UHGV virus genome: UHGV-0130462
Origin: a virus
Direction: 5' to 3' (one strand)
DNA: 38,884 bases
A model generated the notes under the pieces. That model saw nothing but the letters and a program-made list of their open reading frames with translations. It made no database searches and had not been told where the DNA came from. The stretch's first letter is position 1. Each line of letters begins with the position of its first letter. Below are positions 23,267 through 27,289 of the stretch, piece after piece. The position numbers were made by a program, and so were the translations under genes.

Positions 23267-23291
23267 AAAAAGCCCCGCTATTGAGCGAGGC
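23267..23291 (-). terminator. rho-independent terminator overlapping the Rz stop codon
   Basis: Minus-strand RNA: GCCUCGC-UCAAUA-GCGGGGC followed by U5. Confidence 0.5.
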
Positions 23292-23733
23292 ATTCAGTGT
23301 TGATGTAATTCTGCAAATACAAAGTTTGCTGTTCGTTCTCGACTATCATTTCTCTGAGACGTAGATAATCTTGTTCAACTGCTTTGTTAAGTCTTGCGGT
23401 GGTTTCATTGCTTCCGCTTTCGGTGGAATTTTTGGTGACTGCTGGACACTCGGCTTTGATGTACACCCGCTTATTGCCAGAGCTAACAGCATCACGAAGA
23501 GTGTTGATTTCATTCTTTGCACTGGCTAACTCCTGAGTGTATTTAATATCGAGTTGATTTAGTCGAGTGATACGAGCTTGGTAGTCTTTGTTGATTTCGA
23601 CTTGTTGAGATAGTTGACTAGTTAATTCAGCATTTGAAGCTTTTAGCTTACCAATCCTGTTACCCTGCCACGTCATACCGACGCTCATCATCAAAATAAC
23701 GCCCACGGACACTATCGTTTCGCCTAGATTCAT
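23278..23733 (-). CDS. Rz: i-spanin (Rz-like)
   Basis: N-terminal TM segment then coiled-coil periplasmic domain; last gene of the lysis cassette; ATG 23733 overlaps the upstream stop (ATGA). Confidence 0.8.
   Translation of the reverse strand: MNLGETIVSVGVILMMSVGMTWQGNRIGKLKASNAELTSQLSQQVEINKDYQARITRLNQLDIKYTQELASAKNEINTLRDAVSSGNKRVYIKAECPAVTKNSTESGSNETTARLNKAVEQDYLRLREMIVENEQQTLYLQNYINTECLAQ
23346..23513 (-). CDS. Rz1: o-spanin (Rz1-like lipoprotein) embedded in the +1 frame of Rz
   Basis: MKSTLFVMLLALAISGC lipoprotein signal with lipobox, then a Pro-rich 38-aa mature region; fully nested within Rz. Confidence 0.75.
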   Translation of the reverse strand: MKSTLFVMLLALAISGCTSKPSVQQSPKIPPKAEAMKPPQDLTKQLNKIIYVSEK

Positions 23734-24146
23734 AACAACAACCATGCATCTTCAAATACTTTTGGGCTGTAAGGCTGATAACCCAGCTCAACACCAACAA
23801 TCGCTGTGCCCAATGCAATCATAACTTCTTTTTTGTTGACTGATACACAATCTTCCGTACTTACATTCAATTCTTTAGCGACTCGATGAATGTATCCCTC
23901 AGTATTATTTTCTTTGGGCGGAGCATAGCGATTGATGATTTCACGGATAGAACATAACCCGTATTTCTTTTCGTAGGTTCGCATCAATACATAGATTGCT
24001 CGTATACCATATTCAGGTGATACGAATTGGCAAAAGTCTTTATCGGTTTGCTGTGCAGATAGTCCTTGCCATTTTGAACCGTGTCGAATATTACCAGGGT
24101 TGTTGTTTCTTTCCCCGCGTGCTGGTCTAGTCATCTTTAACTCCAA
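23730..24146 (-). CDS. putative endolysin (assigned by position between holin and spanins)
   Basis: Overlaps the holin stop and Rz start; family not recognised from sequence alone. Confidence 0.5.
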   Translation of the reverse strand: MELKMTRPARGERNNNPGNIRHGSKWQGLSAQQTDKDFCQFVSPEYGIRAIYVLMRTYEKKYGLCSIREIINRYAPPKENNTEGYIHRVAKELNVSTEDCVSVNKKEVMIALGTAIVGVELGYQPYSPKVFEDAWLLL

Positions 24147-24483
24147 ACTTAGCCTTTACTATTTTGACCGCACCCTCAAAAAGTGCGTATAGTTTCTTTG
24201 TCCCTAAGAATCCAATTACAACACCACAGAATTCCGCCAATAATGCCCACGAACTAGCATCACCACTACGTGATAGCCACCAATCAATAAACCGAATAGT
24301 TCCAACACTAAGCAAGCCACACATAACAGCCTCACCTAAAGAACGCTTCCATTGAGAACCAGCCTGTCTTTCTCTGATGTATGCAATTGTTGTAGCAATA
24401 GTAAATCCACCTAAGAGTGGGAGGACCGATTGTAACCAGCGTAAAATCTGCTCCCATTCGAATTTTTCTGGCATACGTTTCAT
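24127..24483 (-). CDS. class I holin, lambda S-like, with dual-start motif
   Basis: MKRMPEK... N-terminus and AYIRERQ...MCGLL...IRFIDWWL parallel lambda S; two in-frame ATGs separated by Lys-Arg (24483 and 24474); GGAGG upstream. Confidence 0.85.
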   Translation of the reverse strand: MKRMPEKFEWEQILRWLQSVLPLLGGFTIATTIAYIRERQAGSQWKRSLGEAVMCGLLSVGTIRFIDWWLSRSGDASSWALLAEFCGVVIGFLGTKKLYALFEGAVKIVKAKFGVKDD

Positions 24484-24583
24484 ACCCACCTCCCCATAGG
24501 AGGAATTTAGTTAATAGAACGCCGACTCACAGCTCTTGTGTGAACGTGAGGTGTTGTGATTGATTCTGTGGTCGGCATATACG

Positions 24584-24607
24584 AAAAAGCCCCACTAAAA
24601 GTGAGGC
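24584..24607 (-). terminator. rho-independent terminator between the KilA-N gene and the holin
   Basis: Minus-strand RNA: GCCUCAC-UUUUA-GUGGGGC followed by U5. Confidence 0.5.
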
Positions 24608-24627
24608 TTGCTATAAGTGATTCATAA

Positions 24628-25587: not shown

Positions 25588-25609
25588 AAAAAACCCCGCC
25601 GGAGCGAGG
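25588..25609 (-). terminator. tR'-like terminator of the late leader
   Basis: Minus-strand RNA: CCUCGC-UCCG-GCGGGG followed by U6, about 50-60 nt downstream of the candidate late promoter. Confidence 0.6.
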
Positions 25610-25660
25610 TCTTGAATTCTTTTAACGTTAACGAAATGGCAATAACCCATCGTTAGAACG

Positions 25661-25713: not shown

Positions 25714-26469
25714 TTAATTTGTTACCTTTTTTAGTATGTAATCTGCGTTACTTTCTCCTTTTTCACACTCAACCGCCAATGACTCATAAAATTTACTAAC
25801 TGAACGCTTCCATTGATCAATCGTAATCCCTAAATGAGACACAGCCTGAAAAGCCTTTGATGCAGGTATTCGCTCGTAACCACGACCAGAACAACGCTTA
25901 CAAGGCATACTGACAGCCTCACCGGTTAACCTTAGCGTTTCTTTGTCTATTGCCATACCACGCCCTTTACAGTCATTGCACGCACAAGAAACATAACCTT
26001 TACCGTTACACTTATCACAAGCGCATGACTCGGTGTCATCAATAATGCGAACTTCTTTACCAAAGACTTTTTTAACCTTAATCGCCTTTACCTTAAAACC
26101 TGATCCATTGCACTTTACGCACTCAATAACACTTGATGCCGATCTGCAATAATCTGCATAAGCGAATTTTGCGAGTATTTGCATTACCTTTCGCTTAACA
26201 TTCATATCGAGCTTGCGTAAGGCTGGAACCTTATCGCAATGATTCAATGCATGCCGAGTTAAAAGTTGTATCGCTTTCACTTTGTCATTCTGGCTTATCT
26301 CCATCTTTCCCGAGAACGCAGAAAAGCCGAATGACTCTTTACTCTGACACATACCAAAAGCGCCCATAACATCAGTACCGGTTAATCTATCTGGCGATGT
26401 TGAGCTAGGCGCATCTGATATTGATGTTGTTTTGGCGAAGTGATATTTAACAGCGCTTTCTAGGTTCAT
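25714..26469 (-). CDS. putative late-gene antiterminator (Q-like) with a DnaJ-type zinc finger
   Basis: Four CxxCxGxG repeats (CVKCNGSG, CDKCNGKG, CNDCKGRG, CKRCSGRG); sits between the nin genes and the late promoter/terminator; GGAGG upstream. Confidence 0.5.
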   Translation of the reverse strand: MNLESAVKYHFAKTTSISDAPSSTSPDRLTGTDVMGAFGMCQSKESFGFSAFSGKMEISQNDKVKAIQLLTRHALNHCDKVPALRKLDMNVKRKVMQILAKFAYADYCRSASSVIECVKCNGSGFKVKAIKVKKVFGKEVRIIDDTESCACDKCNGKGYVSCACNDCKGRGMAIDKETLRLTGEAVSMPCKRCSGRGYERIPASKAFQAVSHLGITIDQWKRSVSKFYESLAVECEKGESNADYILKKVTN

Positions 26470-26669
26470 CTCGCCTCCGGTAATACTGTGTGATTATGGC
26501 AGTCGTAGCGTGTGCTAAATGACTTTCTGAGTAATGCCTCTCTCGACATGCCGACCTCCTGCCTAACCGATAAGAAGCCGTTTCTTTTTTGAGTGACGAC
26601 ATGATGATGCTTTGTTTGTTGCCTAAGCCACCTAGCCTCTTCAATGGCTGCGCGGATATCAGTAAACAT
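26466..26669 (-). CDS. hypothetical nin-region protein (NinH position)
   Basis: Start and stop overlap the neighbouring genes (ATGA / TAATG overlaps). Confidence 0.4.
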   Translation of the reverse strand: MFTDIRAAIEEARWLRQQTKHHHVVTQKRNGFLSVRQEVGMSREALLRKSFSTRYDCHNHTVLPEAR

Positions 26670-27289
26670 TAAGCCACCTCCGAATATTGATCCTTTCGCC
26701 TTTTCTCATACCAACGGGCCCTACGAGTGAATATTGATTTCATTCGCTTGAGATATTCGATGTCGAATTTACGGACCGTGTTATCGTGCTCTAAACGAAT
26801 TACTCGCTCTTCGCCGATTTTATTGATGAGATTAATGCGATACGGGATGAGATTTCCTGACAGGTCCCTATTGCAGTGAACACAGCCAGCGTGAATATTG
26901 AGTAAATTAAATCTTAAATGACTTGCCGAACCCCTTGATCTGTAATGACTAGCATCTACGGACCCACCTCTTACTCCATAATTTAAGGGCCGACCGCAAG
27001 CGATGCATGGCTGACCATAGTCTCGCCAAAATATGTATTTATTTACTGCCGCTTGGGCCTCTTTGTTCCAGTCTGATTTTGTCTTTAACTTTTCCTTTCT
27101 GGCCCGCAATATTTTTCTTTCCTCAGATAAACGTTTCTTACGGCCCTTTTCTTCGGTCCGTTTAATTTCATTTGAGGCGAATTTTATTGCGCAGGATGTG
27201 GAACAAACTTTTTGGGTGGATAGGTAGGGAATGAATTCTTTGTTGCAGACTTTACAGGTTTTGAGCTTCGGCTTTTTAGCCTTCGCCAC
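26669..27289 (-). CDS. ninG: NinG / Rap recombination protein
   Basis: N-terminal CKVC...CSTSC zinc motif, basic stretch, and CIACGR...HYRSRG...LRFN..NIHAGCVHCN..LSGNL.PYR pattern as in lambda NinG; GTG start. Confidence 0.85.
   Translation of the reverse strand: MAKAKKPKLKTCKVCNKEFIPYLSTQKVCSTSCAIKFASNEIKRTEEKGRKKRLSEERKILRARKEKLKTKSDWNKEAQAAVNKYIFWRDYGQPCIACGRPLNYGVRGGSVDASHYRSRGSASHLRFNLLNIHAGCVHCNRDLSGNLIPYRINLINKIGEERVIRLEHDNTVRKFDIEYLKRMKSIFTRRARWYEKRRKDQYSEVA

Follow-up and report, generated by a model that had tools for sequence, protein, structure and literature searches.

The late region of the UHGV virus genome UHGV-0130462, a stretch of 38,884 nucleotides (nt) that we refer to as the window, carries a gene for the i-spanin Rz, and this locus raises the question of whether the DNA of Rz also encodes, in a second reading frame, the partner lipoprotein Rz1, i.e. 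the o-spanin, which is the outer-membrane component of the spanin used by phages to break the outer membrane of the host at lysis. The original prediction for this region, viewed here at positions 23,292-23,733, was that a 55-amino acid (aa) lipoprotein with the lipobox ISGC lies at 23346-23513, entirely within Rz and in its +1 frame. We conclude with high confidence that this open reading frame (ORF) is a true o-spanin gene of the Rz1 type. It is nested within Rz, in the +1 frame, and forms part of the late lysis cassette of a Proteus mirabilis prophage that is P22-like.

A lipoprotein is encoded within Rz

The predicted lipoprotein is present in the sequence and is encoded on the minus strand, a detail absent from the original prediction. 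Translation of the predicted interval gives MKSTLFVMLLALAISGCTSKPSVQQSPKIPPKAEAMKPPQDLTKQLNKIIYVSEK followed by a stop codon. The ORF is fully nested in the Rz ORF (Table 1) and occupies 0.46-0.85 of the Rz length. It is read in the +1 frame relative to Rz, with ATG 23513 lying 232 nt and GTG 23522 lying 223 nt from the start of Rz.

Signal-peptide and lipobox prediction had been proposed as a check, and here it took the form of a rule-based test, in which a PROSITE-type lipoprotein rule was run by script. The rule calls for six uncharged residues before the box, a Cys at position 15-35 and a Lys or Arg within the first seven residues. With either start, the N-terminus conforms to this rule for signal peptidase II-type lipoproteins: the stretch VMLLALAISGC fits the pattern, and the lipobox Cys is residue 20 of the GTG form, in which R3 and K5 charge the n-region, and residue 17 of the ATG form, in which K2 does so. 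ISGC also conforms to the lipobox consensus [LVI][ASTVI][GAS]C (PMC6139136). The codon of the Cys predicted to be acylated is 23463..23465, and this Cys is residue 1 of the mature protein.

Mature Rz1 has six Pro among its 39 residues (15.4%), no second Cys and an isoelectric point (pI) of about 9.6. It is a short peptide and is expected to be mostly disordered. The earlier description of this part as proline-rich holds insofar as Pro is enriched; the enrichment is only moderate, and a penta-proline stretch is absent. In Enterobacterales, the "+2 rule" of Lol sorting is established. Residues +2/+3 of mature Rz1 are Thr-Ser, which is identical in lambda-type Rz1, and the lack of an Asp at +2 predicts that the protein is sorted to the outer membrane. 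Two ORFs on the plus strand, 23371..23529 and 23384..23536, are antisense to Rz.

The nested frame is conserved and belongs to the Rz1 family

The Rz1 product matched the Pfam family PF06085 (Rz1) with 41.0 bits (gathering score 27.9, E=1.6e-10), and its best PHROG was 3198, "Rz-like spanin" (1.3e-16). Membership in LysC, the P2-type overlapped o-spanin family (PF23793), was rejected, as the score of 13.3 bits (E=0.079) did not reach the cut-off of 27. An NCBIfam scan of Rz1 and Rz returned no meaningful family, the sole match being a sub-threshold lipoprotein-signal likeness to LpoB, and a PDB sequence search with Rz1 returned nothing significant and no solved structure of any Rz1 relative.

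According to the original prediction, a nested frame that is not conserved among related phages would speak against it. We compared a total of 125 Rz loci, including that of the window, drawn from annotated phages, one genome per species (36 loci) and IMG/VR (80 loci). All 125 loci have the nested +1 frame with a start codon, a hydrophobic signal and the lipobox Cys, and the frame has its full length in 124 of them. An automated lipobox filter had missed five loci with LNGC or QSGC boxes, and manual inspection found the ORF in all five. The loci span phages and prophages of Proteus, Morganella, Providencia, Xenorhabdus, E. coli and Vibrio, and they range from near-identical Proteus prophages to the E. 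coli lambda-type phages 434 and 21 and to Vibrio anguillarum phages; at the most distant loci, the tblastn identity of Rz to that of the window is ~40%, and alignment scores are about one quarter of the self score. Lipoboxes of these relatives include LSGC, ISGC, TSGC, LSAC and LNGC, among others, while the mature +2 residue is T, M or I in all 125. An alignment of Rz1 that covers lambda-type phages, P22, Vibrio, Providencia and Morganella has 11 invariant columns, including the acylated Cys and a C-terminal L..II..S. One locus with a Proteus-type Rz/Rz1, in which Rz is 73% identical to that of the window, is on a 4.4-kb contig (CAAFUN010000119.1) of a metagenome-assembled genome labelled "uncultured Bacteroides sp."; most likely, this contig is a mis-binned Enterobacterales prophage fragment.

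Two further tests address the frame itself. As a null model, we generated 20,000 synonymous recodings of the Rz protein, in which codons were sampled according to the codon usage of the window. Of these recodings, 2.2% contained an ORF of at least 55 codons in another frame of the same strand, and 0.16% contained a lipoprotein-like one. The second test compared codon positions across 100 unique C-terminal halves of Rz that were aligned by codon. Outside the overlap, third positions of Rz were the most variable, with a diversity 1.71 times the mean of first and second positions, whereas inside the overlap this ratio was 0.98 (bootstrap 95% confidence interval (CI) of the difference 0.38 to 1.08; permutation p=0.0002). 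Because position 3 of an Rz codon is position 2 of an Rz1 codon, this loss of third-position freedom is the signature expected of dual coding.

Translation of Rz1 most probably starts at GTG 23522

Between the upstream in-frame TAG and the lipobox, there are three candidate start codons, i.e. GTG 23522, ATG 23513 and ATG 23492, and, provided that the precursor is processed, the mature lipoprotein is identical from all three. We compared 76 unique start regions of relatives. The position homologous to GTG 23522 precedes the Cys by 19 codons, and every one of the regions has a start codon there (GTG in 42, ATG in 33, TTG in one). By contrast, the position homologous to ATG 23513 is ATG in 56 and TTG in one, while the remaining 19 have a codon that is not a start codon (CTG, AAG or CGG). 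A Shine-Dalgarno (SD)-like AGGAG, which also codes for Q-E of Rz, is spaced far more closely to the GTG than to the ATG (Table 1), and 68 of the 76 regions have an AGGA-containing motif at this site. The AGGAG site coincides with the ribosome-binding site (RBS) annotated for Rz1 in phages 434 and 21, and GTG 23522 coincides with their annotated Rz1 start, which is an ATG in these lambda-type phages. Finally, the GTG start places the Cys at residue 20, as in lambda. Because of the start codon present in every region, the AGGAG spacing, the match with the annotated start of 434 and 21 and Cys20, sequence comparison favors GTG 23522, and the 58-aa form is the most probable Rz1 coding sequence (CDS). 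Thus, the 55-aa extent given in the original prediction is probably three codons short at the N-terminus, whereas the mature protein that it implies is unchanged.

The best-surviving alternative, which we regard as a possibility of distinctly lower probability, accepts the gene as real and has it translated from ATG 23513, or from both sites, instead of from GTG 23522 alone. ATG initiates more strongly than GTG, it is found at this position in most of the unique relatives, and a product with Cys at 17 and Lys at 2 still conforms to the lipoprotein rule; ATG 23513 may be a second start. However, an AGGAG that is 17 nt away, the non-start codons in 19 relatives and the agreement of the GTG with the start and RBS annotated in 434 and 21 and with the Cys position of lambda all point to the upstream site, and because the mature product is the same, the choice is of little functional weight.

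A third start has been used in a database record. At NCBI, a protein of 48 aa that is 85% identical to the Rz1 of the window bears the name "lysis system o-spanin lipoprotein Rz1 [Proteus mirabilis]" and begins at the third Met (MLLTLVLSGC...). In this form, the lipobox Cys is at position 10, there is no charged n-region, and the N-terminus is too short for a signal peptide. Its start is probably mis-called, the conserved start being a GTG 10 codons upstream.

Rz1 of the window resembles lambda-type and P22 Rz1 in different respects

A comparison with the Rz1 proteins of lambda and P22 had been suggested to check the prediction, and both turned out to be related to the Rz1 of the window. The lambda-type Rz1 of phages 434 and 21, which matches Pfam PF06085 and falls into the o-spanin family that Kongari et al. 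2018 (PMC6139136) named "Lambda", is 49% identical over the full length of the window Rz1. Both proteins are embedded in the +1 frame of Rz at an equal relative position, in agreement with the description that Rz1-type embedded genes start at about 0.4-0.5 of the i-spanin gene (PMC6139136), and their start codons and RBSs are at homologous nucleotides. They also share the Cys at position 20, T-S at +2/+3 and the C-terminal motif PP...D...L-N-x-I-I...SE, and lambda P35, P42, L50 and I54 are kept in the window Rz1. The partner proteins have the same layout, with a transmembrane domain (TMD), two helices, a linker and two Cys. By contrast, the window Rz1 starts with GTG rather than ATG, its mature part has less Pro than the lambda-type protein (24.4% in the latter), it is more basic (lambda-type pI 8.0), and lambda W38 is replaced by E.

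P22 Rz1, which is embedded in gene 15 and has been placed in the "HK97" o-spanin family (PMC6139136), is 47% identical to the window Rz1. The two come from one virus group, the structural genes and closest relatives of the window being Lederbergvirus/P22-like, and they share the embedded +1 architecture, a mature o-spanin without a second Cys next to an i-spanin with two Cys, and the lack of a penta-proline stretch. P22 Rz1 differs in its lipobox (VSAC vs ISGC), in having K instead of T at +2, in its longer C-terminal tail, in its acidity (pI 4.6) and in a lower Pro content of the mature part (11.9%). The P22 match is also weaker than the lambda-type match (39 vs 48 bits), and the tblastn matches to Rz1 at E<=1e-3 did not include P22.

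Close relatives are in the Proteus phages vB_PmiP_Brookers and vB_PvuS_Pm34 and in "Salmonella phage MS2 LVA". Their Rz1 frames are 91-96% identical to that of the window over 55 residues and have the GTG start, the SD sequence and the lipobox as in the window. At mature position 25, the window has Q while nearly all relatives have H.

Evidence against a functional Rz1 gene and alternative explanations

Several observations weigh against a functional Rz1 gene. The compared loci are phylogenetically related, and they amount to fewer independent observations than the count of 125 out of 125 suggests. When only the window-like subfamily is considered, the codon-position contrast is weaker (2.07 vs 1.15; p=0.023), and the bootstrap CI just includes zero. 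The start codon is assigned by sequence comparison, and expression, lipidation and a role in lysis are predicted for this Rz1 by analogy with lambda. Moreover, the protein departs from lambda Rz1 at residues that matter there. The penta-proline P32-P36 is mutationally sensitive in lambda and, except for P34, is reported to be conserved in the "Lambda" o-spanin family (PMC5295617, PMC6139136); in the window Rz1, which lacks it, K/-IPPK stands opposite PPPPP. Among the lambda-sensitive sites, P32 is aligned with K by one aligner and with a gap by another, P33 is replaced by I and P36 by K, and further sensitive sites differ as well (I39 to A, P44 to Q and W46 to L; Table 3 of PMC5295617). An equivalent of lambda Rz1 Cys29 is also absent.

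These substitutions, together with the absence of penta-proline and Cys29 (PMC5295617), could mean that the ORF is a decaying, non-functional Rz1 remnant and that the outer membrane is disrupted by other means. One relative does have a truncated copy. In Proteus vulgaris PR00166 (NZ_JAEHOQ010000006.1, Rz region about 2501..2907), the precursor has 37 aa and the mature part, CTSKPNVQRAPVIPPQHG, 18 residues. The same contig holds a second Rz locus in which Rz1 is intact, and the truncated gene is probably a decaying prophage copy. For the window Rz1, we consider decay very unlikely. The form without penta-proline or second Cys is intact in about 40 distinct window-like mature sequences, which come from many Proteus and Morganella prophages and from the lytic-capable phages Brookers and Pm34. 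P22 Rz1 shares both absences, and its record describes it as required for lysis when divalent cations are present. Moreover, Rz retains its C-terminal Cys, which is sufficient in lambda, and in a catalogue of 526 two-component spanins, the o-spanin lacks a periplasmic Cys in 124 cases (PMC6139136).

In the window-like subfamily, the longest Pro run is two, and the second Pro varies (P/Q/T/S/L). Because the form without the stretch is intact in these roughly 40 sequences and P22 Rz1 also lacks it, we read the loss of penta-proline from the sequence data as a subfamily trait with a co-evolved Rz and not as decay. Similarly, sequence comparison leads us to treat penta-proline as a trait of a narrow lambda subfamily, and not of Rz1-type o-spanins generally.

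Least credible of all is that the nested ORF is not a gene at all and is an accidental open frame kept by the constraint of the Rz protein on the DNA: long alternative frames do arise in synonymous Rz recodings, any alternative frame of a conserved gene appears conserved in tblastn, and the ORF is not called on any of the 55 contigs with this Rz, but the rarity of lipoprotein-like frames among the recodings, the retention of frame, signal peptide, lipobox Cys, start and SD sequence across Rz genes at about 35-50% identity, the loss of third-position freedom exactly within the overlap, the Pfam score and the genetic proof of the homologous frame in lambda (PMC5295617) leave next to no room for it.

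Rz and the lysis cassette

The original prediction that Rz1 completes a lysis cassette is borne out by its surroundings. Genes for a holin and an endolysin lie directly upstream of Rz and adjoin it in the late operon (Table 1), which is the location expected for a two-component spanin. On the minus strand, the gene order is NinG, Q, hairpin, KilA-N, hairpin, holin, endolysin, Rz/Rz1, hairpin and terminase region; downstream of Rz are a 49-aa ORF, DUF2560, the small terminase gp3 and the large terminase, all on the minus strand. The head and packaging genes of the window are 93% identical to those of the Proteus phages vB_BPM-V3 and Brookers, and on sequence grounds we classify the window as a P22-like (Lederbergvirus-type) Proteus mirabilis prophage.

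Table 1. Coordinates of Rz1, Rz and neighboring features in the window
Feature	Position	Strand	Evidence and remarks
NinG	26669..27289	minus	Upstream of Q
Q antiterminator	25714..26469	minus	PF03589
Terminator-like hairpin	25590..25613	minus	Just after Q, tR'-like position
KilA-N protein, 260 aa	24628..25410	minus	PF04383 2.9e-26; between Q and holin, flanked by terminator-like hairpins
Terminator-like hairpin	24587..24609	minus	After KilA-N gene
Class I (lambda S-like) holin	24127..24489	minus	PF05106 4.1e-14; PHROG 126
Endolysin	23730..24146	minus	PHROG 873 "endolysin" 9.6e-49; PDB 7q47 "Endolysin" E=2.8e-22
Rz (i-spanin)	23278..23745	minus	PF03245 1.2e-29; PHROG 13 7e-43
SD-like AGGAG	23530..23534	minus	7 nt upstream of GTG 23522, 17 nt from ATG 23513
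Rz1 (o-spanin) CDS, most probable form	23346..23522	minus	GTG start, 58 codons and stop, MQRMKSTLFVMLLALAISGC followed by TSKPSVQQSPKIPPKAEAMKPPQDLTKQLNKIIYVSEK; ORF list, Pfam Rz1
Rz1 as delimited in the original prediction	23346..23513	minus	ATG start, 55 codons and stop; alternative or additional start
Lipobox I-S-G-C	23463..23474	minus	Read from the sequence; lipoprotein pattern check
Mature Rz1 (predicted)	23349..23465	minus	39 residues (CTSKPSVQQSPKIPPKAEAMKPPQDLTKQLNKIIYVSEK); aligns to positions 1-39 of 41 of the Pfam Rz1 model
Terminator-like GC-rich hairpin and T-run	23272..23291	minus	GCCTCGCTCAATAGCGGGGC TTTTT; overlaps Rz stop codon; consensus scan only

Rz has two start options. 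ATG 23745 gives 155 aa and is used in the JGI/Logan calls (13 contigs), and ATG 23733 gives 151 aa and is used by NCBI, where the exact protein bears the name "lysis protein [Proteus mirabilis]" (42 contigs). ATG 23733 forms an ATGA overlap with the stop codon of the endolysin gene, which suggests translational coupling of the two genes. A 100% identical Rz is present on two IMG/VR contigs. Residues 6-22 of Rz, TIVSVGVILMMSVGMTW, are an N-terminal hydrophobic segment and a putative TMD. Rz has two cysteines, Cys96 and the near-C-terminal Cys148, which are the equivalents of lambda Rz C99 and C152. Two Cys are present in the periplasmic part of Rz in 124 of the 125 relatives, and 69 of 72 unique mature Rz1 sequences have no extra Cys. 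A single-sequence AlphaFold2 model of Rz, with a modest mean pLDDT (predicted local distance difference test) of 70, has a helix at residues 3-84, a low-confidence linker at 85-107 and a second helix at 108-150, i.e. the layout of lambda Rz with TMD, CC1, linker and CC2 (PMC5295617).

The endolysin contains the motif NNNPGNIR and matched neither a Pfam nor an NCBIfam family. Further matches were to a virion protein of 1295 aa (PDB 9vvp Gp29), in which the matching part is an internal domain, and to tape-measure and tail-injection transglycosylase families of PHROG. Its PDB match, 7q47, is probably the unusual lysozyme-fold endolysin of Hafnia phage Enc34. The partner endolysin differs in type from that of lambda, being presumably Enc34-like and neither lambda R nor a signal-anchor-release (SAR) lysozyme. 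The holin scored 49.3 bits with TIGR01594, slightly below the cut-off of 55. Its N-terminus (24472..24489, minus strand) reads (GTG)M-G-M-K-R-M-P-E-K-F, and the closely spaced Met codons with basic residues between them are reminiscent of the dual-start holin/antiholin motif of lambda S107/S105 and P22 gene 13/13'.

The KilA-N gene is a moron-like insertion at a site where relatives (Brookers) have a tRNA-Met and a small membrane protein. The terminator scan found 10 terminator-like sites vs 2.8 expected in shuffles. The hairpin at the end of Rz is internal to the late operon and precedes the terminase genes.

Proposed mechanism

The lambda paradigm, which has been characterized both by genetics and by biochemistry (PMC5295617, PMC6139136), provides a model for the function of Rz1 in this prophage. 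In this model, ribosomes would initiate on Rz1 within the Rz mRNA, with GTG 23522, preceded by AGGAG, as the most likely start, and the precursor would be exported by Sec. Cys20 would then be diacylglycerylated, the signal peptide cleaved by signal peptidase II and the Cys N-acylated. The C-terminal part of Rz1 would bind the C-terminal (distal) helix of the inner membrane-anchored Rz dimer to give a complex that spans the periplasm. Once the holin and the endolysin have destroyed the peptidoglycan, this complex would collapse and fuse or disrupt the outer membrane, and as a result lysis would be completed.

Lambda needs a homotypic disulfide at Rz C152 or Rz1 C29, and C152 alone suffices (PMC5295617, PMC6139136). 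Because the window Rz1 lacks a periplasmic Cys, covalent dimerization would rest on Rz Cys148, the equivalent of C152. The Rz Cys is present at the residue level, and formation of the bond is a prediction. By analogy with lambda, we also predict that Cys148 would be indispensable here.

Annotation of Rz1 and what it means for this spanin family

As stated in the original prediction, the gene is missed by length-filtered ORF calling, since the default minimum of the ORF tool is 60 aa and even the longest form of Rz1 has 58 aa. The 55-aa and the 58-aa forms are both absent from a collection of 15 billion proteins, in which the enclosing Rz is found on 42 + 13 contigs. Similarly, a protein homologue search with Rz1 returned a single protein, the 48-aa Proteus mirabilis record described above, vs 121 phage records with tblastn. 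There is only one called homologue because the nested gene is seldom called, and not because the sequence is rare. Even among the close phage records, the nested Rz1 is unannotated in Brookers, Pm34 and PSTCR7lys, while MS2 LVA is without any annotation. In a survey of o-spanins, 196 were unannotated, and 64 had a wrong start (PMC6139136).

An Rz1 embedded in Rz is the textbook arrangement, and the locus adds neither a new mechanism nor a new architecture. In other words, the window contains a previously unannotated Rz1 from a Proteus-centered subfamily of a well-understood system. The main value of the finding lies in annotation, as without Rz1 the lysis cassette of this prophage appears incomplete, and the case is a further example of how gene callers are known to overlook nested genes. 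It is also mildly informative for the family in that this subfamily, like P22, does without the penta-proline and the Cys29 of lambda.

More tentatively, and with considerable doubt, we speculate that the Proteus/Morganella "IPPKAEAM...DLTKQLNKIIYVSEK" subfamily represents a distinct embedded-o-spanin solution that is basic and has neither penta-proline nor a periplasmic Cys. If true, disruption of the outer membrane by this subfamily would not depend on the polyproline "fusion motif" deemed essential in lambda, and perhaps a short amphipathic helix would serve instead; the subfamily would then be a natural test of the need for polyproline in spanin-mediated membrane fusion.

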